In this document: positions 37,735 through 63,485 of the stretch, one piece after another
Numbering within the stretch: position 1 is the first letter of the stretch
Layout of the letters: the number at the start of each line of letters is the position of its first letter
Origin: Collinsella sp.
GTDB lineage: Bacteria > Actinomycetota > Coriobacteriia > Coriobacteriales > Coriobacteriaceae
Assembly: GCA_052281595.1 (NCBI GenBank)
Contig: DAWBRY010000004.1
Span: 67,854-131,853 of the forward strand
Length of the DNA: 64,000 nt
Direction: 5' to 3'
Translations under genes and position numbers: made by a program
Notes under the pieces: model-generated
Databases searched by the model: none
The model's input: the letters and a program-made list of their open reading frames with translations, nothing else
What the model was told of the DNA's origin: nothing

Positions 37735-37825
37735 CCTGCCGCTGCCATATATGTACCCAGTTATGCGGATGCGTAAACGCACATCTGCATACCTGTGCGG
37801 ATGCGCGTTTACTTATTCTTGCCCG
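37735..37825. repeat. ATGCG/TGTGCG-rich promoter-proximal repeat, copy 1, 5' of parA.
   Basis: tatgtacccagttatgcggatgcgtaaacgcacatctgcatacctgtgcggatgcgcgtttac. Core IR TGCGT-AA-ACGCA. Confidence 0.6.
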
Positions 37826-37834
37826 CCGGCGCCG

Positions 37835-38107
37835 CTATGCGCCGTATTCCGACGCCCTCGCGGCGCGATACGCGCGGCGCGTTTCGACCTTGCGGCAGCA
37901 CTCCTTCCGTGCCGCCACCGTCCTCTCCGCCACGTCGTAGGCGTACGCGATGAGCGCGCCCGCCACCGGGAACACGGCGCAGTTGATGTAGACATAGCTG
38001 TATGCGAGCATGAACCACATCCCGACGAGCCCCGCGACCAGCGCGGCGGCGGCGGCGACCTTCTCCCTTCCGCTCGGCTCCATTACTTCCCTCTTGCAAC
38101 CGGCCAT
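37835..38107 (-). CDS. Small membrane protein.
   Basis: RBS GGAAGGAGG before ATG 38107. Hydrophobic AAAALVAGLVGMWFMLAYSYVYINCAVFPVAGALIAYAY. The upstream part of ORF 37835..38341 is repeat sequence. Confidence 0.4.
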   Translation of the reverse strand: MAGCKREVMEPSGREKVAAAAALVAGLVGMWFMLAYSYVYINCAVFPVAGALIAYAYDVAERTVAARKECCRKVETRRAYRAARASEYGA

Positions 38108-38159
38108 GACGGCCTCCTTCCGATATTCGGCGATCCCGCGCCGACGCGGTCGCGGCCTC

Positions 38160-38370
38160 CCTTGCCGCTGGTATGTATGTACCCAGCTGCGCACATGCGT
38201 AAACGCACAAGCACGTAAATGCGCACGTATGCGTCTGCGTAATTCGATAATTTGCCCAGCGGGCCGCCCGGACACCGGTCGGCAGGCCCCTGGCCTGCGA
38301 TTTCCATGGCCGGATGACCGGCGGGACCCCATCCGTCCCATAGGCAGCCGGGTGTGGGAAACGTGTGGAG
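38160..38370. repeat. Composite repeat, copy 2: the ATGCG-rich repeat (38160-38262) plus a conserved ~70-nt block (38293-38365), then a terminator hairpin.
   Basis: The 70-nt block (ttccatggccggatgaccggcgggaccccatccgtcccataggcagccgggtgtgggaaacgtgtgg) is ~92% identical to 39010-39075. It is followed by ccccgccgtctccggtggggc. Confidence 0.6.
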
Positions 38371-38443
38371 ACGGGCTACGGCATGAAAAAGCCCCGCCGT
38401 CTCCGGTGGGGCGATCACTTGAGTATGGGGTTGTACGGGTCGG

Positions 38444-38869
38444 CTAGAACGGGATGTCCTCGTCCGCAACCTCGACGGCGGGAGCCTCGGGGACCGCATA
38501 CTGCTGTCCACCATCAACCGCGGCAGCAGGAGACGCGGCAGGGCGGGAGTTCATGAACTCGATCTCGTCGACGATGACCTCGAGCTTGCTGCGCTTCTGG
38601 CCGTCGCGCTCCCAGGAGCTATAGCGCAGCTTGCCCTCGATCGCGACCTTGCTCCCCTTGGAGATATAGCGGCCGACAGCCTCGGCGCGGGTGCCGAACA
38701 TGGTACAGTCGATGTAATTGGGATAGTCCTCCCACTCGCCGGTCTGCGGGTTCTTTCGGCGATCGTTGACGGCGATGCCGAACGAGAGCACCTGGGTGCC
38801 GGCCGCGGTGACGCGGAGCTCGGGATCGCGGGTGAGGTTTCCGGTGATGTTGACTCGGTTGATGCTCAT
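38444..38869 (-). CDS. ssb: Single-stranded DNA-binding protein.
   Basis: MSINRVNITGNLTRDPELR…OB fold, Gly/Pro/Ala linker and C-terminal acidic tip …DEDIPF. Confidence 0.9.
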   Translation of the reverse strand: MSINRVNITGNLTRDPELRVTAAGTQVLSFGIAVNDRRKNPQTGEWEDYPNYIDCTMFGTRAEAVGRYISKGSKVAIEGKLRYSSWERDGQKRSKLEVIVDEIEFMNSRPAASPAAAVDGGQQYAVPEAPAVEVADEDIPF

Positions 38870-38911
38870 TGGCTTCTATCCTTTCGGTTCCGACGGGGGC
38901 CGATCCCCCGC

Positions 38912-39080
38912 CTTCGTCGCCATGTATGTACCCAGATGCTCAGATGCGTAAGCGCATAGATGTGCGTTTGTGCGGCTATGTATTGGGCTGGCACCGGAGT
39001 CCGGCGTTTTCCATGGCCGGATGACCGGAGGGACCCCATACGTCCCGTAGGCAGCCGGTTGTGGGAAACGCGTAGCGATT
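38912..39080. repeat. Composite repeat, copy 3 (ATGCG-rich repeat plus the conserved ~70-nt block), 5' of ssb.
   Basis: catgtatgtacccagatgctcagatgcgtaagcgcatagatgtgcg… then ttccatggccggatgaccggagggaccccatacgtcccgtaggcagccggttgtgggaaacgcgtagcg. Confidence 0.6.
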
Positions 39081-39121
39081 CCTCCGGTTCGGTTCTCGCC
39101 CAGTTTGAATCACGGGGCGGT

Positions 39122-39553: not shown

Positions 39554-39764
39554 GGCTGCTCCTTGCCCAAGTCGTTCATTCGGTATTACCAGTTGATACC
39601 CCGTTCGGGCGCATCGGAAACAGCCGATTCCGATGCGGACGGGAAGATACGGACAGGCGGCCTTCCGCCCCGATCTCAATTTAGCGGGCATGAGCGGGGG
39701 CGATTCGGGGTAAACGGCTCTCTAGGGAAGCCGTGGGAGCGGGATGGAACGGAAACGGAAGGAT

Positions 39765-40635: not shown

Positions 40636-40905
40636 GTGGGCGGATGCAGCAGGTTCGACGCCAAGGTCGTCCCCATAGCGGTCGAGACCGACCGAAAGTG
40701 CGGGCTCAACACCCCGAGGGCAATCGTGTGCGACGGGCGGCGCTTCGAGATCGCCAGGGTCGGCGCGACGCTGCCCTGCCCCAGCATGTTCGGCAAGGCG
40801 GACGCCACCGTGACCGGCGTCCTAGTGGACGTCGGCGGTCGATGTGTCGCGCGCGGGCTGATCTGCGACGACGGTCTGTGGTTCTCCGTGAAGCCGGACG
40901 GGTAG
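40636..40905 (+). CDS. Small hypothetical protein (GTG start).
   Basis: RBS GGGAGGGAGG 8 nt upstream of GTG 40636. 89 aa. Confidence 0.35.
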   Translation: MGGCSRFDAKVVPIAVETDRKCGLNTPRAIVCDGRRFEIARVGATLPCPSMFGKADATVTGVLVDVGGRCVARGLICDDGLWFSVKPDG

Positions 40906-41739: not shown

Positions 41740-42010
41740 GGCTAGTTCCGCCAGATAGCACGACGGCCCCGCCCTCGGAGGGACTGCGCAGCGATGATCG
41801 ATTCCGAGTTCGCATATAAGCGTTCGACATGGCGATGATTGATTGATTCCATATCCAGATTTCAAGACAGGGGCCGTTTTCGGCCCCGTCCTTTTCCCGA
41901 ACCCGGTCCGGCGATTTTTCCGCGGCGTGCGTTTACGTTTCCCCTCAGGGGGTACAAGAGAGGTAGAGCAGGCGGTATGGGGCCGCCCGGTGCGCATATG
42001 GGAGGACTAT

Positions 42011-42637
42011 ATGGAAACGATCTTCGTGACGGAATCGCGCGAGATGCTGTTCACGGGAACCGAGGATATCGACGTGCGGCCGCTCCATTCGTCGGAGCTG
42101 CATTACGAGGGAGACAGCCGGGAGGAGGCACTGCGTGCGGCGCATAAGGTCTCGGCGGCCTCCAGGGTCGGGGTCTGCCAGCGCGGTTTCGCCCGGTTCG
42201 TCGCCACAGTGAGCGAAATCACGCGCGACGGCGAGGGGTTCACGGAACACATGGATACGGTCCACACCGTCGACCCGCTCGACCGCATGCCCGAGCTGCG
42301 CACGCTCGCGCGCGAGGCGGCCGCGAACCGTGCGGACGGGAAGATCATCCGCCATATCGCCGGCCACACGGAGGCGATCGACGCTGCGAAGCGTGCCGGG
42401 GACTACTACAGCCTGTACCGCGTGGAGGGATCGGCCTTCGGGGACTTCTCTTGCTACCGGGTCGGACATGCGCCCTACAACGGGACGCTCTACCTTCCCG
42501 CGGGGTTCCACGATTACGGCATTGCCACCGTCGACGAGCTTTTCGTCGCACTCGTGGTCGGACGCTGCGAATTCCTGTGCGAATACCAGGACGAGATCGA
42601 TGAGGTCTATCACGGGCTCTTCGAGAAGAGAATCTAG
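42011..42637 (+). CDS. Hypothetical protein.
   Basis: RBS GGGAGGA before ATG 42011. The 5' extension of the ORF is untranslated and terminator-containing. Confidence 0.5.
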   Translation: METIFVTESREMLFTGTEDIDVRPLHSSELHYEGDSREEALRAAHKVSAASRVGVCQRGFARFVATVSEITRDGEGFTEHMDTVHTVDPLDRMPELRTLAREAAANRADGKIIRHIAGHTEAIDAAKRAGDYYSLYRVEGSAFGDFSCYRVGHAPYNGTLYLPAGFHDYGIATVDELFVALVVGRCEFLCEYQDEIDEVYHGLFEKRI

Positions 42638-43081
42638 ATGAAAGGAACGGATATGCAGACCATCCACACCAAGGCGGGCTTCAAGGTGCTGCGCGAGAGC
42701 CTGGGGCTCTACCAGTCCGACGTCGCGGAGGCAGCGGGCGTCGACGTGAAGACCGTCAAGAACTGGGAAAGCCCGCGCCTGCCGCGAGCCCGCGCCACTG
42801 CCGTGGCATGGAAGTACCTCGAGAATCTGGCGGAAATCCAAGAGCGCGAGGTCGGGTGCCTGGTGGAGAAGATTGTCGATGAGACGGACGGCAACCCCTA
42901 CCCGCTCCCCTACTTCCGCGAGCAGGACTTAGCCGCGGAGGATGCGCGCGCGGCGCGGATCTCGAACGCCATGACCAGAAAGGTGGCCTTTGAGCTCACC
43001 AGGTTGGCCATCCCCTACGAGTTCCGCTTCGAGGAGGAGGCCGCGGACGATGAGCGGCTGAGCGAGATCTGGGATATGTAG
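42638..43081 (+). CDS. XRE-type HTH regulator.
   Basis: LRESLGLYQSDVAEAAGVDVKTVKNWES. Start abuts the previous stop. Confidence 0.55.
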   Translation: MKGTDMQTIHTKAGFKVLRESLGLYQSDVAEAAGVDVKTVKNWESPRLPRARATAVAWKYLENLAEIQEREVGCLVEKIVDETDGNPYPLPYFREQDLAAEDARAARISNAMTRKVAFELTRLAIPYEFRFEEEAADDERLSEIWDM

Positions 43082-43851: not shown

Positions 43852-44283
43852 TCACGCGGTCGGGGTGCCTAGGTCGGTTTCGGCCAGGACGTCGCGGATA
43901 TCCGCCACATCCCTCACTGCCATGACGATGCACCTGATCGATACCGCCGCCGCGACCACGGATGTCAGGAGGACTGCCGCGCCGACGTCGTGGGCCCAGA
44001 TGACAATCCCCACAGCCATAGTGATGGCGAGGCCAACGATCCAGCAGATGAGCGCGTTGCGCGACTCGTCGAGATACGATCGCGCATAGACCTCCAAAAT
44101 CTCGCGGTCGATGCCCATCTTGCCGAACCTGTCGATGTATCTGGACATCCTCGACGACATGCCGTGCTCGGTCCATGCAACCATTTTCAGAAAACCCATG
44201 GTCGCAATCGCCGCGTTGAATGCCATGGCCATGCAAGGAACCAGGTCGATATTTTCACTGATGAACGGCGCCATGCGGACCAT
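43852..44283 (-). CDS. Small membrane protein with two TM helices.
   Basis: RBS GGGAGGGG before ATG 44283. Hydrophobic ICWIVGLAITMAVGIVIW and AAVLLTSVVAAAVSIRCIVMAV. Confidence 0.5.
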   Translation of the reverse strand: MVRMAPFISENIDLVPCMAMAFNAAIATMGFLKMVAWTEHGMSSRMSRYIDRFGKMGIDREILEVYARSYLDESRNALICWIVGLAITMAVGIVIWAHDVGAAVLLTSVVAAAVSIRCIVMAVRDVADIRDVLAETDLGTPTA

Positions 44284-44294
44284 CCCCTCCCGTT

Positions 44295-44385
44295 TCGTCT
44301 CTACTCGATGTGAGTCTACCCATATGCGCATGTACGTAAACGCATAGACGCGCATGTACATATATGTGTGGACGTGCGAGCGGGG
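44295..44385. repeat. ATGCG-rich promoter-proximal repeat, copy 4.
   Basis: catatgcgcatgtacgtaaacgcatagacgcgcatgtacatatatgtgtggacgtgcg. Confidence 0.55.
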
Positions 44386-44389
44386 CGGC

Positions 44390-44923
44390 CTATTGCAGGC
44401 CCGGGTTCACGATGCAGTAGCATCGCTCCGACCTCGGCTCCTTCTCGCCGGGCGCCATCACCTTGACCGTGACCGGAACCGTCTCAGAATCGGGGGCGAA
44501 CGCCGTGAACGACTTCAATTTCCCGCCCGGCTCGATCTGCTTCTGCGCCCGCTGGTCCTGCACCTTGTAGGACCTGTCGAGCTTGATCCCGTCCTGGTAT
44601 GCGTTGATGTCGGTATAGGGTGCGACAGCGTCCGAGTCCGTGACGTTCTCGAAGGTATAGGCAACCCGGATGTAGCGGAACGGCTTGCCGTCCGGCCCCG
44701 TGCCTTCCTCGATCGTCACGCGGTCGATCGAGATGCCGTCCACGGACGCCTGGGCGGACTGCTGCGGCGCGAACGGCGACGAGGTGCCGGCATCGCCCGA
44801 CTTCCCGGCGCCGCCGTCGGAGGAGCCGGCGTCCGGCGCCCCGTTCCTCACGCAGCCCGCGAGTCCGGCCTGCGCCGCCATGACCGCGAGGCCCACGAAC
44901 GCTCGCCTCGTCATCGCCGTCAT
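44390..44923 (-). CDS. Lipoprotein with a Tat/Sec signal and lipobox.
   Basis: MTAMTRRAFVGLAVMAAQAGLAGC (RR motif, LAGC lipobox), then a Gly/Ser linker and a β-rich domain. Confidence 0.55.
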   Translation of the reverse strand: MTAMTRRAFVGLAVMAAQAGLAGCVRNGAPDAGSSDGGAGKSGDAGTSSPFAPQQSAQASVDGISIDRVTIEEGTGPDGKPFRYIRVAYTFENVTDSDAVAPYTDINAYQDGIKLDRSYKVQDQRAQKQIEPGGKLKSFTAFAPDSETVPVTVKVMAPGEKEPRSERCYCIVNPGLQ

Positions 44924-44943: not shown

Positions 44944-45768
44944 TCACCTGTGAATCTCCTTTATGCTCTTCAAAATGGGGGCGGTGCAGACGCGGTGCCG
45001 AGTCTCACGTATCGCAGCGCGCCTGGCCTCGTCCTGCATGAGCTTCGGTCTCCCCTCGCGAAAGGCCGCGGCCCTTCTCGCCGCCGCTGCGAATTTCCGC
45101 TCGGCCTCGTCGAAGTCGATATCGCGCCACGCGCGATCCCCGCCCGTGCCGGATATGAAAACCGACGGCACCACATGGCTGCTGTCCGCATAGTCCGCCG
45201 GGACGGACATCTCCGCATAGCCCGACGGCTCGCTGCCGTCCGGCAGCCGGTACACGACGAGCTCCTGCTTCCTGCGTTTGCTCACGCGGCGCTCGCACAG
45301 CTCGAGATGGAACGCCTCGTACGCCATGGCGCTATATGGGGAGCAGGAGAAGCGGTACTCGAATAGGCATTCCGCTTCCCTCCGATGCCGTTCCGCCTCC
45401 TGCACCCGGGCCGCAGCCTGCGCCCGGATCCGGTCGCGCTCGGCCGCCTCCTCGGGCCCGAGCTCGCGGAACGCCCCGACCACGGCGGCCTCGTCCAGGG
45501 CGAAGAACTCCGTCTCGCGGGCGTAGGCGCCGGTGTGGTGCCAGGACGAGTAGGCGATGAACCGGTCGAAGAGCGCGGCCCTGGTCTCGGACTCGACCGC
45601 GGGGTCGTAGAGCAGGTCCATCTCATCGCAGTAGCCCCTCAAGGCGCCGAGGATCGCCGCCTTGGTCCATTTCGAGCGGGGCATCTCCCCCGCCTCGTAG
45701 GCCGCCCGCGCGTTCGCGCTCATGGAGGCGCCGATGTATCCCTTTTGCCCGTAAGCCACCCTAGACAT
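44944..45768 (-). CDS. Hypothetical protein.
   Basis: 274-aa ORF, partly helical and Arg/Glu-rich. Confidence 0.45.
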   Translation of the reverse strand: MSRVAYGQKGYIGASMSANARAAYEAGEMPRSKWTKAAILGALRGYCDEMDLLYDPAVESETRAALFDRFIAYSSWHHTGAYARETEFFALDEAAVVGAFRELGPEEAAERDRIRAQAAARVQEAERHRREAECLFEYRFSCSPYSAMAYEAFHLELCERRVSKRRKQELVVYRLPDGSEPSGYAEMSVPADYADSSHVVPSVFISGTGGDRAWRDIDFDEAERKFAAAARRAAAFREGRPKLMQDEARRAAIRETRHRVCTAPILKSIKEIHR

Positions 45769-45954
45769 GTCAAACCCTTCGCGCGGATGCGTTCCGTCCC
45801 AGCTTTTTCTACCCCGTGCGCGGGAAGTCTTTCACTCGATTCGAGCCGGTGCAGGGGCATTTTTATCCGTCGAGTTTCGGTAGGGGCGTGTAAAGCGCGG
45901 CGGGGGCGGGTATCAAAGCTGCTGTGTATGCCAATTCCAATAAAGAGGTGGTCC

Positions 45955-47157
45955 ATGTCCGACCCGATCGCCGCGGCCGAAGCCGCCGGCAAAGCCCGCG
46001 ATATCGCCAACCGCTTCGAGACCGCCGTATTCCTCATCGCATACGGCATCGCCGAGAAGGACGGCCTCTACGAGGCCGACCCGCATAGGTATCCCTACAG
46101 CCAGGCATTCAGACACGGCATGAATATCCTCGCCGCGCTGTGCGCTGAGTGTTCCGACGATGCGGAAGAGCTGCTGCCGACGTTCAATGAGTCCGATTTC
46201 ATCAGGAACAGCGCAGCGTCAGACGTGCGCGAGTGGACGGCCCGGTGGCGCGACGAGTGCAGGGAAGCCGTCGAAGGGTGCCGGTCCATCGAGATCGGGC
46301 CCCTGGCGTCAGTAGACGGCGACTACTTCGCCGCGACGTCGGAATGCTACGAGGTGCTGCGCTTTGCGGAAAACGACCTCTTGGGCGGCCATCAGGAACG
46401 CAGGGTGTATGAATTCCTCCGAGCCGGCACCCAGGAGCAATACGTGTACGGACGCAGGATGCTCATCCGCCACCCGCTGCTCACCTGGAACGAATACGTC
46501 AGGATCAAGACGGGGCTCGCCCTGGGCGACCCCGACCCCCTCGACCAGGGCGAAGCCGACACCATCGACCCGGTGTGGTTGCAGGAATTCGTCTCCATGG
46601 CCTACGAACCCGTCCCGGGCGCCGCAAAAGTATGCCCGAATTGCGGCTGGACGATGACCATGCGAGGCAAGCAGCCCCACTGCTCATCGGCGACGTGCGC
46701 CAAGGCCGTCACAGGCGATTTCGACAAGCTGGACAGCGTCGCGCACGACGCCTTCCGCCTATCCCGCGGCGTCATGCACTACATCTCTTCCCCCGGAAAG
46801 CTCGAGCTGGCGATCGCCGAGGCCGCAGCGGGCCTCGGTCTGAAATACGAAATGTGGCCCCTCAAGGACACCTGCGACATCCTGATCCATCTGCCGGACG
46901 GCCGGCAGCTTGCCGTCGACGCCAAGGCATACGGCCGCGCCGAGCGGCTTGCCCGCGAGATAGAGGACGACACCGGCATCGCCCAGATGTGCGCGGACGA
47001 GGTGGCCTATGTCGTGCCGGACCAAGTCGAACGGGACCATCCCGGATATCGCGCGCTATGCAATGCCGTCCTGCGCGGCAAGACCGGCTATTCATGCGAA
47101 ACGCTGCGCAACTTCTCGAAACGACTCGATGCCGCCGCGAAGGGAGGCACGCGATGA
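45955..47157 (+). CDS. PD-(D/E)xK restriction-endonuclease-fold protein with an internal Zn ribbon. First gene of the candidate defence operon.
   Basis: RBS AAAGAGGTGG before ATG 45955. CPNCGWTMTMRGKQPHCSSATC (Zn ribbon). C-terminal …DILIHLPDGRQLAVDAKAY fits PD…D-x-K. Confidence 0.55.
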   Translation: MSDPIAAAEAAGKARDIANRFETAVFLIAYGIAEKDGLYEADPHRYPYSQAFRHGMNILAALCAECSDDAEELLPTFNESDFIRNSAASDVREWTARWRDECREAVEGCRSIEIGPLASVDGDYFAATSECYEVLRFAENDLLGGHQERRVYEFLRAGTQEQYVYGRRMLIRHPLLTWNEYVRIKTGLALGDPDPLDQGEADTIDPVWLQEFVSMAYEPVPGAAKVCPNCGWTMTMRGKQPHCSSATCAKAVTGDFDKLDSVAHDAFRLSRGVMHYISSPGKLELAIAEAAAGLGLKYEMWPLKDTCDILIHLPDGRQLAVDAKAYGRAERLAREIEDDTGIAQMCADEVAYVVPDQVERDHPGYRALCNAVLRGKTGYSCETLRNFSKRLDAAAKGGTR

Positions 47158-54696: not shown

Positions 54697-54994
54697 ATCC
54701 CGTCATCCGTTCGACCAGTAACAGGGAATTGATACCCGCGCAAGCGAAAAAATATACGCTGAACGGGGGTTTTGCAGAAACTATAGGAAGTTTTTGAAGG
54801 CGGGGCGGATATGCTTCCGCGCATTTCCCCGCGCGCCCGTATACCCCGATGCGCAGACGGGTACGATAGCCTCAGAATGATGTGGGTCCCGCGCAGCCGA
54901 ACGGCTTGTCTTTCCCATGCGGGCATCGCGGATTTCTTTCATGGGTGGGACTTCGGTCCGAGAACAGGCCGCGATCTCGTAAGGGGTCGCGGCC

Positions 54995-55135
54995 TGTTCA
55001 TCTGTGCGTCTATGTCTTTATGCGTGCGCGCATATGTGCAATGGTGCTGGTGTGTATATATGCGTGTGCGCGTATGTGCCTCGGCGTATGTATGCCGATG
55101 TGCGGATACGCATCCGGACAGATGTGCCGGTGATC
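54995..55135. repeat. ATGCG/TGTGCG-rich repeat, copy 5, 5' of the helicase.
   Basis: tgtgcgtctatgtctttatgcgtgcgcgcatatgtgcaatggtgctggtgtgtatatatgcgtgtgcgcgtatgtgcc…. Confidence 0.55.
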
Positions 55136-55635
55136 TATACGGGAAAACCGGCGCCGGTCTCGCATGAGCTCTTCCGCCTCAGCATCGCCCATATCAGCTC
55201 GATTGCCGGGGCGACGCGCACCTGCCGGAATTCGGAAGTGTCGTAGCGCTTCCGCAGGGCGCCGCGGGCGTCGGGCGAGTACACGGCCGCCCCCTTGGGC
55301 AGCATACCTTTGGAAGCCAGCGAGTCGGCGAGCTCGAGCGGGCACACCAGCCAGTTCTCATCGCCCTCGAACGTCCTGCCGTGGCCGCTCGTGAAATCGT
55401 CCATACACGACTTGACCTCGACGAACGTGAAGGTGCCGGACTCGAGCTCGGCGGCGGTCGCGTGGTTCGACGATCGGTCACGCGGACGATGCGGCCTGTA
55501 GGCCACGAAATCGACCCGGCGGGCGTCATCGACCCAGACCTCGCTCGCGACCAGGGCGTTCTCGCGGCACAGCCTCGCCCATACCTTCTCGGAAAGCTCG
55601 GCGGTCACCTCGCCGCGGTTTCGTTTCCCCTCCAT
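55135..55635 (-). CDS. PD-(D/E)xK nuclease-fold protein (VRR-NUC/MmcB-like).
   Basis: RBS AAGGGGAG before ATG 55635. …RRVDFVAYRP…TFTFVEVKSCMDDF (D…EVK). Confidence 0.5.
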   Translation of the reverse strand: MEGKRNRGEVTAELSEKVWARLCRENALVASEVWVDDARRVDFVAYRPHRPRDRSSNHATAAELESGTFTFVEVKSCMDDFTSGHGRTFEGDENWLVCPLELADSLASKGMLPKGAAVYSPDARGALRKRYDTSEFRQVRVAPAIELIWAMLRRKSSCETGAGFPV

Positions 55636-55784: not shown

Positions 55785-56162
55785 CTAGAAGAATATAAGC
55801 CAGATCGTACCCAAGAGCAGGGAGACATATCCCACAGCGGTCACGAGGAAGTCTATGAAGGCGAGGGCCGCGGCAGTATCGACCCGGATGCCACAGGGGG
55901 CCAAGTTCGATGCGAACCCATGCAGGGGATACATGGCACAGATGAGGCATATCGATTCGAGACCTGCCGCCAACAGGGGATTCACCCCCGCCAGCTCCCT
56001 CGGATAGAACAAGCCCATCAGGACGGAATCCGCCACCAGCGCCGCCCAAATCAGGAACACGCCGACCTTAAATGCCTTGGTGTCCTCGACCAATGCCAGG
56101 GGCATCATGCAGCCGAAGAAATCGAGCAGCAAGGCCGAGGCGATCAGCGGGACGACCATCAC
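55785..56162 (-). CDS. Polytopic small membrane protein downstream of flotillin.
   Basis: 125 aa, ≥3 hydrophobic helices. Start overlaps the flotillin stop. Confidence 0.5.
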   Translation of the reverse strand: MMVVPLIASALLLDFFGCMMPLALVEDTKAFKVGVFLIWAALVADSVLMGLFYPRELAGVNPLLAAGLESICLICAMYPLHGFASNLAPCGIRVDTAAALAFIDFLVTAVGYVSLLLGTIWLIFF

Positions 56163-57565
56163 TCCACCGAGTTCTCGGCGGAGTCGGCATCGATATCGGG
56201 GTTCGAGATCAGACCGTTCAGCAGGGACGGCAGGTCGATTCCCGTGCTGTCCTTCAGGCCGGATGCGACCTGATCGACAATCGATGTGGTCTCCTTTACG
56301 AGTTTTTGCGCGTTGCCCGATCCGTACATCTTGATGGAATCGACGGCAGTGAGGGGCTTCGCAACCTGCTCGGCTACCTTGGGCATGATGTCGATGTAGC
56401 GGTTGGCGAGCAGGTAGGGGTTATCCATGCCGTTGTACGCCTCGGCCTGGGCCTTGATTCCCGCCGCGACGCCCTCGCCGTGGGCCTTCTCGGCCACACC
56501 CTCGGACTCGCCCTTCAGGCGCGTGGCCTCGGCCTCGGCCTTCGCGCGGGCCTGGATGCCCTCGGCGTCCTTCTGGGCGGAATACAGCTCGGCGTCGGAT
56601 TGGTTCTGACGCTCGATGCGGGCGGCCTCGGCCTGCTTCGTGCGCTTGTAGAGGTCGGCTTCGGCCGCCTGCTCTGCGGCGTAGCGGTCGGCCTCGGCCT
56701 GCTTCTTCACGGTCGCGTTCAGCTCGCGCTCCCTCACGTCCGCCTGGCGCTCGGCGAGCTCGACCTTCTTGGTCTCCGCGGCGATCTCGGCCTCCTGCTG
56801 GGCGATGTAGAGCTCGCGCTGCTTCTCGGCCGTCACGGTGGCCTTCACCATATCGGCCTCGGCCTTCGCCTTGTCGGCCTGCTTCTTGAGGTCGGCCTGC
56901 TTCAAGTCGAGCTGGTTCTGGCGGATGGCGACCTCCTCGGCCGCCTTGATCTGCGCCAGCTCGGCTTCCTTTTTAATCTCGGCCGCTTGATCGGCGCCCA
57001 TGGAGCGGATGATGCCCTGGGAGTCGGAGAAGTCCTGCACATTGAAGGTGCGCAGCTCGAGGCCGAGATTGGCGAGGTCATCCTTGGAGCCGCCGAAGAC
57101 CTTCGCGTTGAAGCTCTCACGGTCGCGCATGAGCTCCTTGAGGTCCATCTGGCCGATGACCTCGCGCATCTTGCCCAGCATGACCTCGGTGACCTGGCGG
57201 GTCATCTCCTCTTTGTCCAAATTCAGGTAGTTCTTGGACGCGGTCTCGATCAGCTCGGGGGTCTGGCCGATCTGGAAGTTCGCCACGGCGCAGGCGTGGA
57301 TGAGGATTGCGTCCTGCGTCGGGATATCGTTCTCGGTGGTCAGCTGCACCTGCACGGCACCGAGCGAGAGGGTGTCCACGCGCTGGAGGAGCGGGATCAC
57401 GAAGGTTCCCTTGCCGGAGACGGAGCGCATCTTGCCGGCGCCGGAGACGATCATGAGCTTATCCGGCGGGCATTTGCGCCAGCAGCTCTCGAACACCAGC
57501 ACGACGGCCATGATGCCGACGGCTGCGGGGAGCAGGTTGAAGATCAAAGATTCGAAAAGCATCAT
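56159..57565 (-). CDS. Flotillin / SPFH (band-7) domain protein.
   Basis: N-terminal TM, SPFH core (…VQVQLTTENDIPTQDAILIHACAVANFQI…) and a long EA-rich coiled coil (AEAEATRLKGESEG…). Confidence 0.8.
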   Translation of the reverse strand: MMLFESLIFNLLPAAVGIMAVVLVFESCWRKCPPDKLMIVSGAGKMRSVSGKGTFVIPLLQRVDTLSLGAVQVQLTTENDIPTQDAILIHACAVANFQIGQTPELIETASKNYLNLDKEEMTRQVTEVMLGKMREVIGQMDLKELMRDRESFNAKVFGGSKDDLANLGLELRTFNVQDFSDSQGIIRSMGADQAAEIKKEAELAQIKAAEEVAIRQNQLDLKQADLKKQADKAKAEADMVKATVTAEKQRELYIAQQEAEIAAETKKVELAERQADVRERELNATVKKQAEADRYAAEQAAEADLYKRTKQAEAARIERQNQSDAELYSAQKDAEGIQARAKAEAEATRLKGESEGVAEKAHGEGVAAGIKAQAEAYNGMDNPYLLANRYIDIMPKVAEQVAKPLTAVDSIKMYGSGNAQKLVKETTSIVDQVASGLKDSTGIDLPSLLNGLISNPDIDADSAENSVE

Positions 57566-57682: not shown

Positions 57683-58075
57683 TCAAAGGCGGCGGCGATC
57701 ATGTAGCTCCAGCAATTCGTATAAGAGGAGAGGCAAGGCCATCGCGAAGAGAGACGGCAGTAAGATGTAGTAAAACGCTGATCTTATAATGATGTCGTCG
57801 GCCGTCATCAGGGCCTCGAATGCTTTCAAGGCCTCGTCTGGTTCCGCATCGGAAACCAATTCGCCCTGACTGCTTTTCATATCGGCTTGTTCGGTCGCGT
57901 CGCCGACAGGCGCACTTCCGTTCAGGTCGACGTCGACGACGACATGATCACCGTCGTCGGAGATCACGGCGGCGGTCGCGTTCTCGGCGTAAGCCGCGGG
58001 CGCGATGCAGCCGAACGATGCTGCGGCTATGGCCATGGCGACGAGCGGCCCTGCCGCCCTTGCGGGTATCCTCAT
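57683..58075 (-). CDS. Secreted/anchored small protein (signal peptide plus C-terminal TM).
   Basis: MRIPARAAGPLVAMAIAAASFGCIAPAAYA…C-terminal YYILLPSLFAMALPLLLY. Confidence 0.45.
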   Translation of the reverse strand: MRIPARAAGPLVAMAIAAASFGCIAPAAYAENATAAVISDDGDHVVVDVDLNGSAPVGDATEQADMKSSQGELVSDAEPDEALKAFEALMTADDIIIRSAFYYILLPSLFAMALPLLLYELLELHDRRRL

Positions 58076-58199
58076 TTCCGTTCTCCATTCCTTTTCGGGG
58101 CGCGCCCTCCCTCGGCGCTGTCCGTTTCCCCTCAGGTGGTTATTCCCCGTATCCGGCGGCTTAAACGCCGGATACGGAAAACGGCCGGAAACAAGGCGC

Positions 58200-58335
58200 C
58201 CACCGAGGCTGGAGCCCGATGGGCGCGTGTGCGGCTATGTGCATGTGCGTAGATATGCCGACGTGCATGTGTTCCATTGTGCGAGTGTGCGTATGCGCAA
58301 CTGCGTATGTGTGCGTGTATGCGTATGTGCGATTG
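58200..58335. repeat. ATGCG/TGTGCG-rich repeat, copy 6.
   Basis: gtgcggctatgtgcatgtgcgtagatatgccgacgtgcatgtg…gtgtgcgtatgcgcaactgcgtatgtgtgcgtgtatgcgtatgtgcgattgcgg. Confidence 0.55.
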
Positions 58336-58341
58336 CGGAAC

Positions 58342-58560
58342 CTACAGGAGCGTATCGAAACCGGGCCTGCCCAGATCCTGGCGAATGCTGCCGGTCGTGA
58401 GCTCGACGTGCGGGCGGCCGTCGGCGCCGAAGACGAGGTTCGTGGCGCCTGCCCCGGGGACCACCGTATCCACCTGCCCCGTCGTGAGATCGTACCGCAT
58501 GTTGCCGACCTGCTGCTCGATATGCGCCGTGCCGTCGGGTTTCAGAACGTTCCTGATCAT
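58342..58560 (-). CDS. Small hypothetical protein flanked by repeat copies 6 and 7.
   Basis: RBS AAAGGTGG before ATG 58560. 72 aa. Confidence 0.35.
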   Translation of the reverse strand: MIRNVLKPDGTAHIEQQVGNMRYDLTTGQVDTVVPGAGATNLVFGADGRPHVELTTGSIRQDLGRPGFDTLL

Positions 58561-58564
58561 GGCG

Positions 58565-58645
58565 TGCCACCTTTACGCATATATGCGGATGCGGATGCAT
58601 GGGTATGTGCGGATGCGCGGTTGAGCGTTTGCGTGTGTATGCCAA
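58565..58645. repeat. ATGCG-rich repeat, copy 7.
   Basis: tacgcatatatgcggatgcggatgcatgggtatgtgcggatgcgcggttgagcgtttgcgtgtgtatgcc. Confidence 0.5.
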
Positions 58646-58679
58646 AGCGCCTGCGGGCGCATCCGCACCCCCCATGGTA

Positions 58680-59732
58680 TCAGTGTCGGGGCGCGGAGTC
58701 CTTCGAGACCTCGCGGGCAGCGTCGGCGACCTTGCCGGGCGACGGCTTCTCGGCCGCCGAGGACGCGGCGGCCTTCCGGGCGACGGCGGCGATGGAGGCC
58801 GGGGTCCTCTCCGGCCTCACCCAGCCGTAGGCCTCGGCCATCTCCTCCATGTCGACGATATCCCGATTGAGATATACCGGCGAGATCTCGCCGGTATAGG
58901 CCTGCTCCAAGTCCTCGACGATCGCGTTCTCCGCGAGGAAGTTGTCGCTCGCCAGGCGCCAGTCGCCGTCGGTCTGCTGGAAGAGGACCGGGTCGGCCCC
59001 CTCGTCGGTGTAGTAGACGAGCGTCGACGCTCCTTGCGCCTCGCCGGCCTCGACGGCATACGAGAACGTCTTCGCCTTCAGGTCGGCGATGCGGAAGGCG
59101 GCGTCGCCGACGCCCCAGCCCTCGGCGAGATCGGCGTCGACGGCATATGCATCAGCCTGCGACACGCTATCCAAGCCGCCCATGATGCAGTAGCCGTCCA
59201 CCATGCGGAATACGCCAAGGGTGCGCGTATCGGGACCGTTGCCCCGAGCCCGAACGGAATCCAGGGAGTCCTTCAGGCCGACCGCAGCCGGATAGGTCGA
59301 GCACAGGTAGACCAGGCCGTCCGCCGGGACGTCGCCGTGGACGCCGCGGTCGAAGACGCAATAGCCCTTTCGCCTCGCGCTGTCCAGTGCGGATTCCAGG
59401 GCGCCCAGGGCGGGGGCGGCCTCCTCGACCATGAGCACATCGGCAAGCGCCGAGACGAGTTCCCCGCGATAGGTGTTCTGCGGAACCTTGCCTCCGAGCG
59501 CCTTGCAATCGCTCAGGAACCGCTCCCTTCCGCGACCGTCGTCAAAGCTATCGAAAAGGTCCACGGGGATCGTCTCGATAGCCTCCTTCCACCCGTTCAA
59601 CGTGAAGCCAACGGTTCGGCCCAGTTCGTTCAAAAAGCCGACCTCGACGGTCTCGTGAACCAAATGGCCGACCGAAACGATACCGCGGTCGAAGGCCTCG
59701 TTCAGCATGATCTCGAGCTCTCGCCTGTCCAT
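58680..59732 (-). CDS. Hypothetical protein carrying an array-like tail (…AAVARKAAASSAAEKPSPGKVADAAREVSKDSAPRH) outside the array.
   Basis: 350-aa ORF with an Ala/Lys-rich C-terminal tail resembling the array tails. Confidence 0.5.
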   Translation of the reverse strand: MDRRELEIMLNEAFDRGIVSVGHLVHETVEVGFLNELGRTVGFTLNGWKEAIETIPVDLFDSFDDGRGRERFLSDCKALGGKVPQNTYRGELVSALADVLMVEEAAPALGALESALDSARRKGYCVFDRGVHGDVPADGLVYLCSTYPAAVGLKDSLDSVRARGNGPDTRTLGVFRMVDGYCIMGGLDSVSQADAYAVDADLAEGWGVGDAAFRIADLKAKTFSYAVEAGEAQGASTLVYYTDEGADPVLFQQTDGDWRLASDNFLAENAIVEDLEQAYTGEISPVYLNRDIVDMEEMAEAYGWVRPERTPASIAAVARKAAASSAAEKPSPGKVADAAREVSKDSAPRH

Positions 59733-60147: not shown

Positions 60148-60184
60148 GTCCTCGATCTTCTCCACGGGAAACCCCAATCCCTCA

Positions 60185-60300
60185 GGGAGGGCGCGCGGCC
60201 GTGCGCCCTCGTATGTGCGTATCTGTGCGGGTATGCGCATGCGCAAACGCGCAGATGTGCGGACGCGTATGTGCATACCCATGCGGACATCAGCGAGGAA
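60185..60300. repeat. ATGCG-rich repeat, copy 8.
   Basis: gtatgtgcgtatctgtgcgggtatgcgcatgcgcaaacgcgcagatgtgcggacgcgtatgtgcatacccatgcgg. Confidence 0.55.
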
Positions 60301-60490
60301 GCCCGCGGACGAGCGATGCGAAGTCCGCATCGACGCGCGACCGGTCCAGCTCCCAGAGGTCGGCGATGAAGTCGAGCAGGACCCTCACCGTCCCGGTGCG
60401 CTCGGGTCGCGGGAGGCGCGGCACCAGCAGGACGACGGAGTAGAGGGCCTGCTCATAGCTGCGCCCCTCCTGGGGGGCACGGCGGCTCAT
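60290..60490 (-). CDS. Small (66-aa) ORF translationally coupled to the DnaC-like gene (ATGA overlap).
   Basis: MSRRAPQEGRSYEQALYSVVLLVPRLPRPERTGTVRVLLDFIADLWELDRSRVDADFASLVRGLPR. Confidence 0.3.
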   Translation of the reverse strand: MSRRAPQEGRSYEQALYSVVLLVPRLPRPERTGTVRVLLDFIADLWELDRSRVDADFASLVRGLPR

Positions 60491-61518
60491 CGCCCGGCTC
60501 CCTCGGCATCGCAGGGCGCCATGCGGCGGTCCGGTCCGTCCATCTTGACGCGCTCGGTCATCTCGGCCAGGCGCGAGACGATAGCCAGGGCGTCCTCCTT
60601 GCGGCCGTACTCCGACAGCACCGCGGCGAGGCCCGCCTGGGTGTACTGGCTTGTCACGATCGTGGCGCGCTCGGCCTCGTAGCGGCCGTTGACGATCTGG
60701 AACAGCTTCGCGAGCACCCACTGGGTCGAGGAGTCCTTGCCCAGGTCGTCGATGATCAGGACCGGGACGTTCACGTACCTGCGGATGACGTCGGCCTCGC
60801 TGTCGCCGCCCTTGTCGAAGGTCGAGCGGAGCTCGGTCATGAGGTCCGCCGAGACGACGAACCTGACGCCGTGCTTGGGCCTGCCCTTCGGGACCGGGCG
60901 GTACGCCCAGTTGCCGAAACGGGGGTCGAGGCGCGAGCCGGCGTAGTCGTAGGCGATGCAGCATGCCCGCTCGGTCTTGCCCACCCCGCGCGGCCCGTAG
61001 ATGTACAGCCCGCCGCCGCGCGCGAGGCGCGCGTCGTAGGCATGCTCCGGGGCGGCCTCGCCCTCGGCGATGCGGCGGGCGAAGCGCGGCGGGATGCCGG
61101 TCTTGCGCACGACCGCCTCATGGAACGCGCGGTCGGTCGCGGCGAGGGTGGCCACGTCCGCGACCTCGAGCGGCGGCAGGGCGCCGAGGGCGGGAAGTGT
61201 GGCGGGCGCGGCGGCCGGGGCCTCGGGCACGGGTGCCGGAACCGGAATGGGTGCCGTGGGCGCGGGCGCGGCGGCGCGGGGCTCCGGTTCGAGGTAGTGC
61301 GGCCCCTTCTCGTGCCATGCGTCGGCCTCCGCCTTCCAGTCGAGCACCGGCGTGCCGTCCGCCCGACGCCAGACACGGGCGTCGTGGTAGGCGTAGAAGA
61401 AGTTTCCGTAGAAGGCGTTGGCGGCGCCGCGGTCGTCGTAGCCCTTCCCGTGGACGTAGGCCTCGACTTCCTCGAGCGTGGGCTTGGGCGGCCTCGCCTG
61501 CGCTTGCGTCTCGTTCAT
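60487..61518 (-). CDS. DnaC/IstB-like AAA+ helicase-loader ATPase with an N-terminal 'phage conserved' domain.
   Basis: Walker A IYGPRGVGKTERA. Walker B VLIIDDLGKD. The N-terminal segment VEAYVHGKGYD…FYAYHDARVWRRADGTPVLDWKAEADAWHEK is homologous to the C-terminus of the upstream initiator. Confidence 0.7.
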   Translation of the reverse strand: MNETQAQARPPKPTLEEVEAYVHGKGYDDRGAANAFYGNFFYAYHDARVWRRADGTPVLDWKAEADAWHEKGPHYLEPEPRAAAPAPTAPIPVPAPVPEAPAAAPATLPALGALPPLEVADVATLAATDRAFHEAVVRKTGIPPRFARRIAEGEAAPEHAYDARLARGGGLYIYGPRGVGKTERACCIAYDYAGSRLDPRFGNWAYRPVPKGRPKHGVRFVVSADLMTELRSTFDKGGDSEADVIRRYVNVPVLIIDDLGKDSSTQWVLAKLFQIVNGRYEAERATIVTSQYTQAGLAAVLSEYGRKEDALAIVSRLAEMTERVKMDGPDRRMAPCDAEGAGR

Positions 61519-61540
61519 CTCGGTTCTCCCTCCGTCTGAG

Positions 61541-62953
61541 CTAATCGTCGTTGAACTCGCTGAAATCGCTGTCGGCGGCCACGCGCTCGGCGACGCTCAT
61601 GGCCCTCTTCGCGCCAGACGGGCCGGACTTACGGGCGGAGCGCGGCGCTGGCTTGCGGCGCCAGGTGTTCACGACGTTCTTCCATCGGACGATCGGCACG
61701 CCGCCCGCGCGGACCCAGCCGGTGGCCTCGTAATAGTCGAAGAACTCGTCGGGGTCGAGGACGCGGTAGGCGGGATTGTCCGGGTCGGGGGCGTCATAGC
61801 CCTTCTCGTGCACGTACTTGCGGACCTGCTCGCGGGTCGGCGCCTTCGACGGCGCGGCCTTCTCCTCCGCCGCGGCCACGGCGCCGGAATCGACGAGATC
61901 GGCCCTCAAGTCGTAGAACCTCAGGCCGTTTCCGGCGGCGAGGAACTTGGGCAGCGACATGATGTAGCGGCCGTCGGTGTGCGATGCCGCGTACTCGCGG
62001 CGGTAGGTGTCGTAGGCGCGGCCGATGCGCGGGAGCGTCCAGCCGTCCGCCAGCGCGCGGGCATAAGCCTCGGCGACGTCGGCGAAGACTTCGGCCTTGC
62101 CGATGGACATGCGCATGAGGGCAAGCACCTCGGCGTTGGAGACCGGGACCTCCGTCTCGAGCCCAAGGCCCTCCTCCGATGCGACCTTCACGACCGTGAC
62201 CGAGTCGCCCGCGCAGCCCGACATCACCGAGTTTTCGACAGATGGCAGCGCGTCCGCGCGCCCTCTCCCACTAACATCAATAACAACATCCTTGTTAGTG
62301 TCGCAAAAATTGGTACACGGTGAAAACGTTTCCCCAGTTGGGCCCGTGTACCAATTTTTGGTACACGGTGAATCTAGTTGCAAACTAACGTTAGTTTGGT
62401 CGCCCGTGTACCAATTTTTGGTACACGGAGAATCCTGCGGGTTGTTGATAACCTCGTTTTCGACCCCCTCCCCCGGCAAGTTTTCAACAGCGCCCGCCCC
62501 AGTCGATTTCGAGTTATCGACAGGCACGAAACGGCGCTCCTCGGGGATCTCGGCATTGACCACGTAGCGGTTCGAGAGATAGCGCCCTTGGCCCTGCGCG
62601 CGACCCTGGTGCACGCTGATGTAGCCGCACTCGACCAGGGTTCGGCGGTGGCGGTAGTAGGTGTTGCGCGACATCGCGAGGTGGGTGCAGATCGTGTCCA
62701 CGGACGGGAACAGCGAATGGGTGCCCGCGCCGGCATGGGCGCAGAAGTAGGCGTAGACGCCCTTGGCCGACGACGACAGGCGGGTGTCCTCGGTCGCCTT
62801 GGCCGAGACGATGCCGAAGCCGCGCTCCATGAGGTCGCCGCCGAAGACGACGACCGCGCCGTCGCGGTCCAGGATCTCGAACGTCTCGTCGAGCTCGTCG
62901 CGGGTGCGGCCGGCGGGCTGCGCCGCCATGCCGCGCTCCTTTGCGCTACTCAC
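61541..62953 (-). CDS. Phage-type replication initiator / replisome organizer (N-terminal HTH) with the origin iterons embedded in its linker.
   Basis: N-terminal …GVYAYFCAHAGAGTHSLFPSVDTICTHLAMSRNTYYRHRRTLVECGYISVHQ (wHTH). The linker encodes SPCTKNWYTG ×3 from the palindromic DNA repeats. The C-terminal domain is shared with the loader's N-terminus. Confidence 0.6.
   Translation of the reverse strand: MSSAKERGMAAQPAGRTRDELDETFEILDRDGAVVVFGGDLMERGFGIVSAKATEDTRLSSSAKGVYAYFCAHAGAGTHSLFPSVDTICTHLAMSRNTYYRHRRTLVECGYISVHQGRAQGQGRYLSNRYVVNAEIPEERRFVPVDNSKSTGAGAVENLPGEGVENEVINNPQDSPCTKNWYTGDQTNVSLQLDSPCTKNWYTGPTGETFSPCTNFCDTNKDVVIDVSGRGRADALPSVENSVMSGCAGDSVTVVKVASEEGLGLETEVPVSNAEVLALMRMSIGKAEVFADVAEAYARALADGWTLPRIGRAYDTYRREYAASHTDGRYIMSLPKFLAAGNGLRFYDLRADLVDSGAVAAAEEKAAPSKAPTREQVRKYVHEKGYDAPDPDNPAYRVLDPDEFFDYYEATGWVRAGGVPIVRWKNVVNTWRRKPAPRSARKSGPSGAKRAMSVAERVAADSDFSEFNDD
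62295..62430. repeat. Iteron cluster / candidate oriV. Three copies of the palindrome CCGTGTACCAATTTTTGGTACACGG (one is a half-site) plus the palindrome CAAACTAACGTTAGTTTG, in a ~45% GC island.
   Basis: Copies at 62299-62321, 62342-62367 and 62402-62427. Second palindrome at 62379-62396. All lie inside the initiator gene. Confidence 0.6.
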
Positions 62954-63335
62954 GGCGCTGCACCCCCTCCCGCACGACCTCGGCGGGGATCGGGACCATG
63001 CAGAGCTCCCCGTCCCGGTCCTCGCCGTAGGGCGTCACGATGTCGACGATGTAGCCGCCGCGCTCGAGCGCGGCCAGCGCCTCGTCGTAGTCGCGGCGCG
63101 GCAGGCCGGCCTCGGCCGCCGCGATGTCGCGCGCCGGGCACTCGATCGCCACCGACATGGGATCGCGCGCCACGATGCAGCAGAAGACCGACTTCTGCTC
63201 GAGCGTGAGGTCGCCGTCGTCGAAGATCGGGCGGATACGCCGCGCCCAGAACCTATCGCCGACCGTCATCCTCGCCGTGCCGGCCTGCCTCCCGGCTGAC
63301 TCTTTCCTTCCCATATGCCATCCCTCCATGGTCAT
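62946..63335 (-). CDS. Hypothetical protein, first gene of the replication operon.
   Basis: 129-aa ORF immediately 3' of repeat copy 9. Confidence 0.4.
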   Translation of the reverse strand: MTMEGWHMGRKESAGRQAGTARMTVGDRFWARRIRPIFDDGDLTLEQKSVFCCIVARDPMSVAIECPARDIAAAEAGLPRRDYDEALAALERGGYIVDIVTPYGEDRDGELCMVPIPAEVVREGVQRRE

Positions 63336-63349
63336 CCATCGCGGGCCCG

Positions 63350-63485
63350 CGCCCGCATCCTGTGTCTGTATCTACCCAAATGTGCAGATGCGTAATCGCA
63401 CAAATGCGCAAAAACGAAAATGTGCGGTTGCGTATATGCGCATATGCGTACATGCGTATGTATGCTGATGTGTGGGATGAAAAAG
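63350..63485. repeat. ATGCG-rich repeat, copy 9, 5' of the replication operon.
   Basis: tgtatctacccaaatgtgcagatgcgtaatcgcacaaatgcgcaaaaacgaaaatgtgcggttgcgtatatgcgcatatgcgtacatgcgtatgtatgc. Confidence 0.55.

Follow-up and report, generated by a model that had tools for sequence, protein, structure and literature searches.

The question raised by this locus is what a dispersed family of short, degenerate repeats does at the operon junctions of a mobile genetic element. The stretch of DNA that we analysed comprises 64,000 nucleotides (nt) from Collinsella sp. (assembly GCA_052281595.1, contig DAWBRY010000004.1, positions 67,854 to 131,853); it is called the window below, and positions are counted from its first letter. 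It belongs to a Coriobacteriia mobile element, which encodes a MobA/VirD2-type relaxase and a NikA/MobC-like protein, two SSB genes, a PIF1/RecD-like helicase, and a replication module made up of an HTH_36 protein and a DnaC/IstB-like ATPase. An initial annotation had described nine copies of a repeat in its right-hand part, each just upstream of a minus-strand gene, and had proposed that they form a promoter/operator family or, alternatively, single-strand promoters. We found these copies to be tandem arrays of a degenerate 8-base pair (bp) unit, designated A to I in Table 1. That they are iteron arrays bound by a protein is rather likely. As a whole, our reading is that they may be iteron-type arrays bound by a ParG-like protein and acting as combined operators and centromere, to which we assign a probability of about 45%.

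All nine copies (9/9) were recovered at the places where they had been reported. The arrays are 83-150 bp long, contain 7-14 units of 8 bp each, and are spread over at least 26 kb. When the whole 64 kb was scanned for in-phase purine/pyrimidine alternation in 48-bp windows, a measure that is independent of any motif, the nine array regions alone scored 41-46 out of 48. The next peaks were two borderline ones with a score of 38-39, and the maxima reached in Markov simulations (n = 30) were 37-40. Tracts with a score of at least 41/48 were absent from 906 kb of unrelated viral contigs, no arrays were found in the 108 loci of phage collections, and in 819 kb of metagenome contigs alternating tracts were confined to relatives of the element or were plain microsatellites. 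Clusters of the 8-bp unit (at least 4 matches) were also confined to the nine array sites, a result that is partly circular, as the matrix was trained on the arrays. No array copy was present in positions 1-37700 or in the interior of genes. The core TGCGTAAACGCA had 20 matches with up to 2 mismatches, against 3.4 expected, and none of 100 shuffles reached this number; the sites at 37770 and 38196 match it exactly, those at 38945, 44333, and 63389 differ by one base, and that at 60240 differs by two. The box TATGTACCCAG was found without mismatch at 37750, 38176, and 38925. A scan of the window for known RNA families and tRNAs gave none. These findings support the view that the arrays are an element-specific family located at operon junctions.

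Read on the minus strand, the consensus of the unit is A-Y-G-C-R-C-A-T, and degenerate units follow each other in tandem. The autocorrelation of the arrays was 0.45 at lags of 8, 16, and 24, as against 0.31-0.39 at the other even lags and 0.12-0.16 at odd lags. Tiling by expectation-maximisation, with a unit matrix derived from the arrays themselves, yielded 81 units; the spacing from unit to unit was 8 or 16 in 56 of 72 cases and even in all of them. The best-conserved positions were C4 (0.90), A7 (0.90), and C6 (0.72). At positions 2, 3, 5, and 6, the base was nearly free within its purine or pyrimidine class, while the class itself was fixed at 93-97%. The units are asymmetric and co-oriented, as indicated by the ratios of CACAT to ATGTG (19:2) and of CCGCA to TGCGG (14:1). 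Two other identities were considered and rejected. Replication-origin iterons are repeats of 17-22 bp at one origin beside rep, whereas the units measure 8 bp and the arrays are dispersed over nine sites. Rho-utilisation sites were discarded by reasoning alone, because the alternation puts a purine before nearly every C and makes YC dimers rare.

The arrays hold syntenic positions in at least 12 relatives of the element from three genera, found in Gordonibacter, Eggerthella, and Collinsella assemblies, with a Rep protein that is 92-98% identical; among the carriers are Gordonibacter pamelaeae CCUG 55131 (locus L010) and Eggerthella sp. AM16-19 (locus L004). Relatives covering the 51-64 kb half have retained arrays I, H, G, and F, and most of them also E, while those covering the 33-45 kb half have retained A, B, and C, and usually D. 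Two further arrays lie past the right end of the window in two relatives (L009 and L006), indicating that the full element has at least 11. Insertions and deletions in the arrays involved whole units (+8 in array I of L008, -8/+8 in array F of L003 and L006, -24 in array G of L218). In a comparison with 14 relatives, variable sites made up 17% of the arrays, the highest of all classes, as against 8% of coding and 13% of other non-coding sequence. The ratio of transitions to transversions was 143:38 (3.76) in the arrays, whereas coding sequence had 1.41 (Fisher p 3e-8) and the remaining non-coding sequence 1.18 (Fisher p 8e-11); among such close relatives, these counts are not independent events. 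As the variable sites change by transitions, selection appears to keep the purine/pyrimidine pattern and the 8-bp register rather than the exact bases, which would be the picture expected of degenerate sites that are bound cooperatively. Pure drift by CpG deamination was rejected, by reasoning, as the source of the excess of transitions: C4 is conserved at 0.90, while its CpG partner, position 5, varies (A 0.58, G 0.39). This pattern argues for selection over mutation bias alone.

The comparison also disclosed mosaic breakpoints between related elements that coincide with arrays, namely E and F in L005, and further ones in L218 and in L009 (19194-19283); the arrays may thus be recombination junctions for the exchange of modules. 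In L218 and L009, array D is much nearer to the replication-side arrays, so that the intervening segment must differ. In the window, a complete pPIWI_RE three-gene defence island (45385-52788, plus strand) is located between arrays D and E. Its products are a restriction endonuclease (REase; PF18154), a helicase-like protein that contains domain Z (PF18155), and pPIWI_RE itself, which has X, MID, and RNaseH domains. The shorter distance from D to the replication side suggests that this island is variable cargo in L009 and L218.

Arrays A, B, C, D, and I, and only these, overlap a predicted promoter, with units running through its spacer and upstream of its boxes. The core inverted repeat and TATGTACCCAG had been taken for operator boxes, but a reading as the two hexamers, -35 and -10, of a SigB/SigF-type promoter fits them better; this promoter type was also found in the element without an array. 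The SigB consensus of Bacillus subtilis is GTTTAA-N12-14-GGG(A/T)A(A/T), and one promoter of Streptomyces coelicolor reads GTTTGC-N14-GGGTAC (PMC8346170), while the SigF consensus of Mycobacterium smegmatis is GTTT-N15-17-GGGTA (bioRxiv 10.1101/2020.01.15.907535). In comparison with these group 3 promoters of Firmicutes and Actinobacteria, A, B, and D fit GTTTAC-N14-GGGTA(C/G) and C and I are one -35 base off, a likeness at the level of sequence. The motif GTTT-N15-17-GGGTA was counted 9 times in the window, where 0.41 would be expected and no more than 3 were reached in any of 100 simulations; GNTT-N15-17-GGGTA had 14 matches, at 13 distinct sites, against 1.7 expected. Such boxes were present in the five arrays (three with GTTT, C with GCTT, and I with GATT) and at six or more further intergenic sites. 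The matches were situated 25-140 nt upstream of co-oriented gene starts, and the array-free ones, which include those at 40880, 41931, and 58143, 44-68 nt upstream. They were kept in the relatives, whereas two Collinsella plasmids lacked them; in one of these plasmids, the promoter of parA resembled, by eye, an ordinary extended -10 promoter, TGCTAATAT. A scan with the sigma-70 consensus gave no match inside any array, and this promoter class was rejected for them. We think it probable that the boxes are true SigB/SigF-type promoters.

A duplicated module was observed on the plus strand, at 10850-10980 and 13233-13363; its two copies are 83% identical and consist of a terminator hairpin, GTTTTC-N15-GGGTAG boxes, and a ribosome-binding site (RBS). 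The plus-strand block thus uses the same SigF-type promoter class without arrays. As judged from these sites, the promoter class would belong to the whole element, with the arrays as a layer added on part of it. The proposal of a promoter/operator family was supported by the sequence as regards the promoter GTTTAC-N14-GGGTA(C/G) shared by five arrays and the construction from tandem units; arrays E to H lack a recognisable promoter.

A similar correction applies to the claim that each copy lies just upstream of a minus-strand gene. The position was found to hold for all nine, with gene starts (several of them assigned by eye) immediately after A, B, C, D, and I. However, the genes downstream of E and F have promoter-like boxes of their own beyond a hairpin, and G and H are intercistronic. 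Array A begins 2 bp past the stop codon of the small membrane-protein gene. Upstream of array E stands a terminator-like palindrome that includes a T-run (about 55143-55160, by eye), and downstream of it a GC-rich hairpin (54961-54998); the hairpin at the end of F (58196-58226) is both GC-rich and terminator-like. Array G abuts the RBS of the downstream gene and ends 3 nt before its ATG, while H overlaps the stop codon of the upstream open reading frame (ORF; 60290-60292) and stops some 20 nt short of the GTG start of the next gene. Array I is placed after a terminator (63484-63510). A second repeat family was observed upstream, in the sense of the minus strand, of arrays B and C (38294-38371 and 39001-39078; 78 nt, 88% identical). 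These repeats fold into long imperfect hairpins (with the second copy, read on the plus strand, having an RNA z of -4.2) and might function as a terminator or insulator, or as a structured single-stranded DNA or RNA element near ssb.

The promoter data bear on the idea that there is no dedicated binder, and that the arrays are a duplicated promoter module with slippage-prone repeats, in which the alternation would adjust the flexibility, melting, or supercoil response of the DNA at SigB/F-type promoters, possibly by way of B-Z transitions. Its strong points are the strict alternation (41-46 of 48 in phase), kept by transition-only drift, and the fact that A, B, and C share a 50-nt module with 72-82% identity, together with the whole-unit slippage mentioned above. 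We nevertheless regard it as improbable. In a simple model, with approximate energies, the onset of the B-Z transition was at a superhelical density of -0.044 to -0.051 in the arrays, which is not exceptional with respect to background 120-bp segments (median -0.055, 5th percentile -0.047, minimum -0.042). Furthermore, four arrays are promoterless, the same promoter type is present elsewhere in the element without arrays, and both the 8-bp period and the strand asymmetry of the unit would be superfluous in a purely structural role. Z-DNA tracts were also examined as a candidate of their own and were not supported: the arrays do alternate, but with these approximate energies they did not flip more easily than the GC-rich background.

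Folding was also assessed on single strands, since the initial annotation had suggested Frpo/ssi-like single-strand promoters; these, or priming sites of this kind, would fold in the transferred strand when it enters a recipient and drive early leading-region genes such as ssb. The setting has several features of this kind: the region lies beyond the NikA-relaxase module, where the origin of transfer (oriT, unmapped) would be expected, ssb is present, and the genes have one orientation. In addition, folding was good for the plus strand of array I (z -5.7) and moderate for that of H (z -3.0). Yet, apart from the plus strand of I, the z values for single-stranded DNA lay between +1.2 and -2.6 (minus strand) or between +0.9 and -3.0 (plus strand); on the latter, |z| was below 2.3 for seven of the nine arrays, and positive values were seen in three arrays (minus) and in two (plus). 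The units are direct rather than inverted repeats, no long bulged hairpin with -35 and -10 in its stem was found, and arrays also occur far from the presumed oriT side, for instance at the replication operon. We consider this suggestion to be very unlikely.

In our reading, the arrays would instead be recognised by a protein encoded by the element. Array A stands upstream of the gene for a small ParA, which is followed by the gene for a putative ribbon-helix-helix (RHH) protein, and this is the canonical type Ib arrangement. A repeat array upstream of parA, as is typical of type Ib centromeres, was thus found at array A, with about 7 units at 135 nt from the gene for the 182-amino acid (aa) ParA. 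This ParA matched NF041546 (ParA_partition; 1.5e-28, 99.8 bits, which is below the model's cutoff of 180 bits) and was 58-59% identical to the ParA of Collinsella plasmids. Its partner, which we call ParG-like, had no match in Pfam or NCBIfam and was 36-37% identical to the proteins that come after ParA in Collinsella plasmids and are annotated as 'ribbon-helix-helix, CopG family'. In an AlphaFold2 (AF2) model, residues 56-99 formed a strand-helix-helix with a predicted local distance difference test score (pLDDT) of 80-88, while residues 1-55 were of low confidence and largely disordered, with one helix (17-34).

Collinsella plasmids with related ParA and RHH proteins, the nearest that were annotated, contained no alternating arrays. 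In these plasmids, the 8-mer AGTCATAT is enriched at intergenic sites around parA (5 found in L001 against 0.22 expected, at 19410-19439, 20662, and 21035-21068; in L002, at 16590, 16989, and 18033), and these are probably the plasmids' own centromere or operator sites. The beta-strand of the plasmid sister RHH protein, whose residues putatively face the DNA, reads QLSVYVPES, versus RLSVIVPDD in the window type; we infer, and only infer, that Arg/Ser in the strand of the window type might suit GC-rich units and Gln/Tyr in the Collinsella type AT-rich ones. A natural chimera (P0025, locus L011), evidence of domain shuffling between partition systems, combines an N-terminal tail of the Collinsella type with a C-terminal RHH domain of the window type; its contig is too short to include parA or arrays. 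This chimera points to a modular build of tail and DNA domain like that of ParG and fits a ParG-like division of labour, in which the tail would serve for ParA and the RHH domain for DNA. A search for distant relatives of Rep and of the RHH protein, made for protein-unit covariation, reached just two RHH clades and no informative distant Rep contexts. The identification of the ParG-like protein as the binder of the arrays is tentative, and we place it somewhat below even odds.

Table 1. Arrays, promoter boxes, and partition genes in the 64,000-nt window; box positions are predicted
Feature	Position	Strand	Remarks
Array A	37739-37833	-	95 bp, ~7 units; 135 nt upstream of parA (ATG 37604)
Boxes in A, GTTTAC-N14-GGGTAC	37753-37778	-	region ACGCATCCGCATAACT within the spacer
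Array B	38160-38253	-	94 bp; upstream of small membrane-protein gene (ATG 38107)
Boxes in B, GTTTAC-N14-GGGTAC	38179-38204	-	
Array C	38909-38991	-	83 bp; upstream of ssb (ATG 38869)
Boxes in C, GCTTAC-N14-GGGTAC	38928-38953	-	
Array D	44299-44396	-	98 bp; upstream of gene for ~140 aa (start near 44274-44283)
Boxes in D, GTTTAC-N14-GGGTAG	44316-44341	-	
Array E	54986-55135	-	150 bp, ~14 units; no SigF-type boxes inside
Promoter-like boxes, GTATAT-N14-GGGTAT	54727-54752	-	~30 nt upstream of helicase ATG 54696; putative, by eye
Array F	58209-58349	-	141 bp, ~13 units; starts at the stop of the 72-aa gene
Promoter-like boxes, GTTTAA-N13-GGGAAT	58143-58166	-	for gene 57683-58075; separate from array F
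Array G	58563-58673	-	111 bp; after the stop of gene 58680-59732, before the 72-aa gene (RBS/ATG 58560)
Array H	60182-60315	-	134 bp; between the end of the DnaC-like operon and a gene for ~118 aa (GTG near 60159)
Array I	63358-63493	-	136 bp, ~12 units; before the replication operon (ATG 63335)
Boxes in I, GATTAC-N14-GGGTAG	63372-63397	-	
Array-free SigF-type promoter, GTTTCC-N14-GGGTAT	39597-39621	-	upstream of 143-aa gene (ATG 39553); conserved in L012
Array-free SigF-type promoter, GTTTAA-N14-GGGTAG	32502-32526	-	upstream of NikA/MobC-like gene and relaxase operon (ATG 32453)
Array-free SigF-type promoter	10894-10919	+	within duplicated module; promoter of second copy at 13277
Small Walker-type ParA, type Ib-like	37056-37604	-	182 aa
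ParG-like protein	36757-37056	-	99 aa; disordered N-terminal tail, C-terminal RHH (predicted)

Several well-described systems are of the same general design. The RHH protein omega, the ParB of the inc18 plasmid pSM19035, binds contiguous short non-palindromic repeats, one RHH dimer on each; arrays of 7-10 such heptads overlap the copS, delta/parA, and omega promoters and are both operators and parS (PMC9499535). Likewise, the arrays described here are multiple, contain 7-14 units, and overlap predicted promoters, including that of parA and its putative RHH partner; arrays over the promoters of several operons, the regulator's own among them, were found at A, B, C, D, and I, the promoters being predicted. 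They differ in their unit (8-bp AYGCRCAT versus 7-bp WATCACW) and in its orientation, which is nearly always the same, whereas direct and inverted heptads are mixed. They also differ in number (at least nine arrays versus three promoter regions), in that four of them are off promoters, and in the SigB/F type of the promoters. No sequence similarity to omega was detected.

The centromere of pCXC100, which is actinobacterial and of type Ib, spans about 90 bp and comprises nine unspaced, degenerate, non-palindromic direct repeats of 9 bp, which are bound cooperatively with one RHH dimer on each (PMC3074162). It shares with our element a small ParA, a partner of (here putative) RHH type without a detectable sequence motif, and a direct-repeat site upstream of the par operon. 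Its period of 9 bp, its consensus AGNTGGAAA, and its single centromere set it apart from the dispersed 8-bp family. In TP228, the parH site precedes the par operon and extends over about 100 bp; it is made of degenerate tetramer boxes separated by spacers and becomes coated in a cooperative manner (PMC3130281). ParG, which acts at parH and O_F, is an RHH protein whose flexible N-terminal tail contacts the ParA-type ATPase, a build resembling that predicted for our candidate, and the repeat is again 8 bp if, as in our reading, the 4-bp box and the 4-bp spacer are taken together. However, its box is ACTC, with AT-rich spacers and mixed orientations, and there are one centromere and one operator, against nine sites. 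A tandem platform of short repeats overlapping the promoters of several operons is thus a known design. What is new is the unit sequence with its strict alternation, the transition-only mode of change, the presence of at least 11 arrays, the mixture of promoter and non-promoter sites, the SigB/F-type promoter set, and the host group. No paper describing these repeats was found in the literature library that was searched.

The geometry of the arrays is identical to that of the operators of MetJ, an RHH repressor that binds as one dimer per 8-bp metbox, with operators of 2-5 tandem boxes and cooperative dimer-dimer contacts. In contrast, the MetJ box is palindromic (AGACGTCT) and forms short arrays, and the protein, a chromosomal metabolic repressor, has no role in partition. 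The wide distribution of the sites recalls KorB of the IncP-1 plasmid RK2, a partition protein that doubles as a global repressor and acts at about a dozen OB sites across the operons of the backbone. KorB, however, is a helix-turn-helix (HTH) ParB acting on single 13-bp palindromes and not on tandem arrays. Cooperativity between KorA and KorB is mentioned in PMC2680271.

By analogy with omega and parS of pSM19035, ParG and parH of TP228, and ParB of pCXC100, we propose the following mechanism. A small DNA-binding protein encoded by the element would bind as one dimer per 8-bp unit and spread cooperatively over a platform of 80-150 bp. The most likely binder would be the 99-aa ParG-like protein, putatively of RHH type, which is encoded with ParA directly downstream of array A. 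When coated, arrays A, B, C, D, and I would occlude RNA polymerase at the promoters that they overlap and jointly repress parA-parG (as autoregulation), the small membrane-protein gene, ssb, the D operon, and the replication operon. The promoterless arrays E to H, like the other five, would double as dispersed centromere-like loading sites for segregation by ParA and ParG. The arrays would thereby form an additional layer of control, limited to the maintenance and replication half of the element. In its most far-reaching version, a single RHH protein would coat all of the 11 or more arrays, segregate the element, and silence a SigF-type regulon comprising partition, ssb, and replication, with joint release; it would read mainly the shape of the alternating steps of DNA over the identity of the bases, so that only transitions are tolerated. 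The arrays would then amount to a shape-read, multi-centromere master switch in a widespread mobile element of gut Coriobacteriia. This version appears improbable to us.

Several observations weigh against the proposed mechanism. Arrays E to H are without a recognisable promoter, with E about 230 bp upstream of the nearest promoter-like boxes, and because four arrays are promoterless, a pure operator role cannot cover all copies. The largest arrays are not located at parA. The scores for the assignment of the ParG-like protein to the RHH family are weak: the best sequence match in the PDB was RHH CopG (9kkd) with an E value of 0.089, the next RHH match had 0.71, the mean pLDDT of the AF2 model was 66, and its top match in Foldseek, pCXC100 ParB, was not significant (E 4.7). 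No sigma-70-family domain was detected in the window ORFs that were scanned, even at E values up to 5. Because the arrays and the adjacent genes are all on one strand, orientation with respect to transcription cannot be separated from orientation with respect to replication or transfer. The comparative counts come from relatives that are all close. Finally, the binder could be another of the small proteins of the element, such as the 129-aa product of the first gene of the replication operon, the 72-aa protein, or the XRE/Aca2-like protein.

This last point leads to an explanation in which the arrays are operators or silencing sites only, with no role in partition, and are bound by a different regulator: the XRE/Aca2-like protein (42638-43081), one of the uncharacterised small proteins of 129, 72, 118, and 130 aa whose genes come directly after arrays, or a host nucleoid-associated protein drawn to lower G+C. 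The G+C content of the arrays (46-66%, versus a mean of ~64% in the window) would be in keeping with the latter, and several of the proteins encoded next to arrays have no detectable family, while the distance of the largest arrays from parA speaks for any binder other than the ParG-like one. On the other hand, unspaced 8-bp direct repeats typify the RHH centromere binders, whereas HTH repressors use longer and usually palindromic sites, and the sole recognisable candidate for an RHH partner of a ParA adjoins an array, directly downstream of it. We hold such a regulator to be unlikely, though less so than a purely structural role.

The XRE/Aca2-like protein belongs to a plus-strand pair (41843-43081) that consists of a 264-aa ORF with a SigF-type promoter-like site (41931-41954) followed by a gene for an HTH protein of 147 aa with weak Aca2/YdiL-like and XRE matches, an arrangement that might represent an anti-defence (acr-aca-like) pair. 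Besides the canonical SSB (38444-38869), a second, divergent SSB-like protein is encoded at 63514-63876 (minus strand), and a flotillin/SPFH-domain protein at 56159-57565 (minus strand). The left part of the window (12-20258, plus strand) contains sixteen consecutive ORFs of 140-538 aa with high G+C at third codon positions and without a Pfam family at E values of 0.001 or less. They might encode an unrecognised transfer or surface apparatus.

The element family is common in public data, the 90%-identity cluster of its Rep protein containing 2852 member sequences; it occurs in three genera and carries defence cargo. If the proposed mechanism is true, the principle known from omega and KorB, that of a single partition protein exerting global regulation from dispersed sites, would extend to an actinobacterial element whose arrays are unusually numerous. 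They also offer a clean natural case in which the purine/pyrimidine pattern, and not the sequence, appears to be kept by selection. The gut Coriobacteriia Eggerthella, Gordonibacter, and Collinsella metabolise drugs and dietary compounds, and their genetics are poorly developed. Combined with a modular operator array, the promoter class GTTTAC-N14-GGGTAC would supply parts for gene expression in these bacteria that are probably repressible, as well as a candidate stability cassette.

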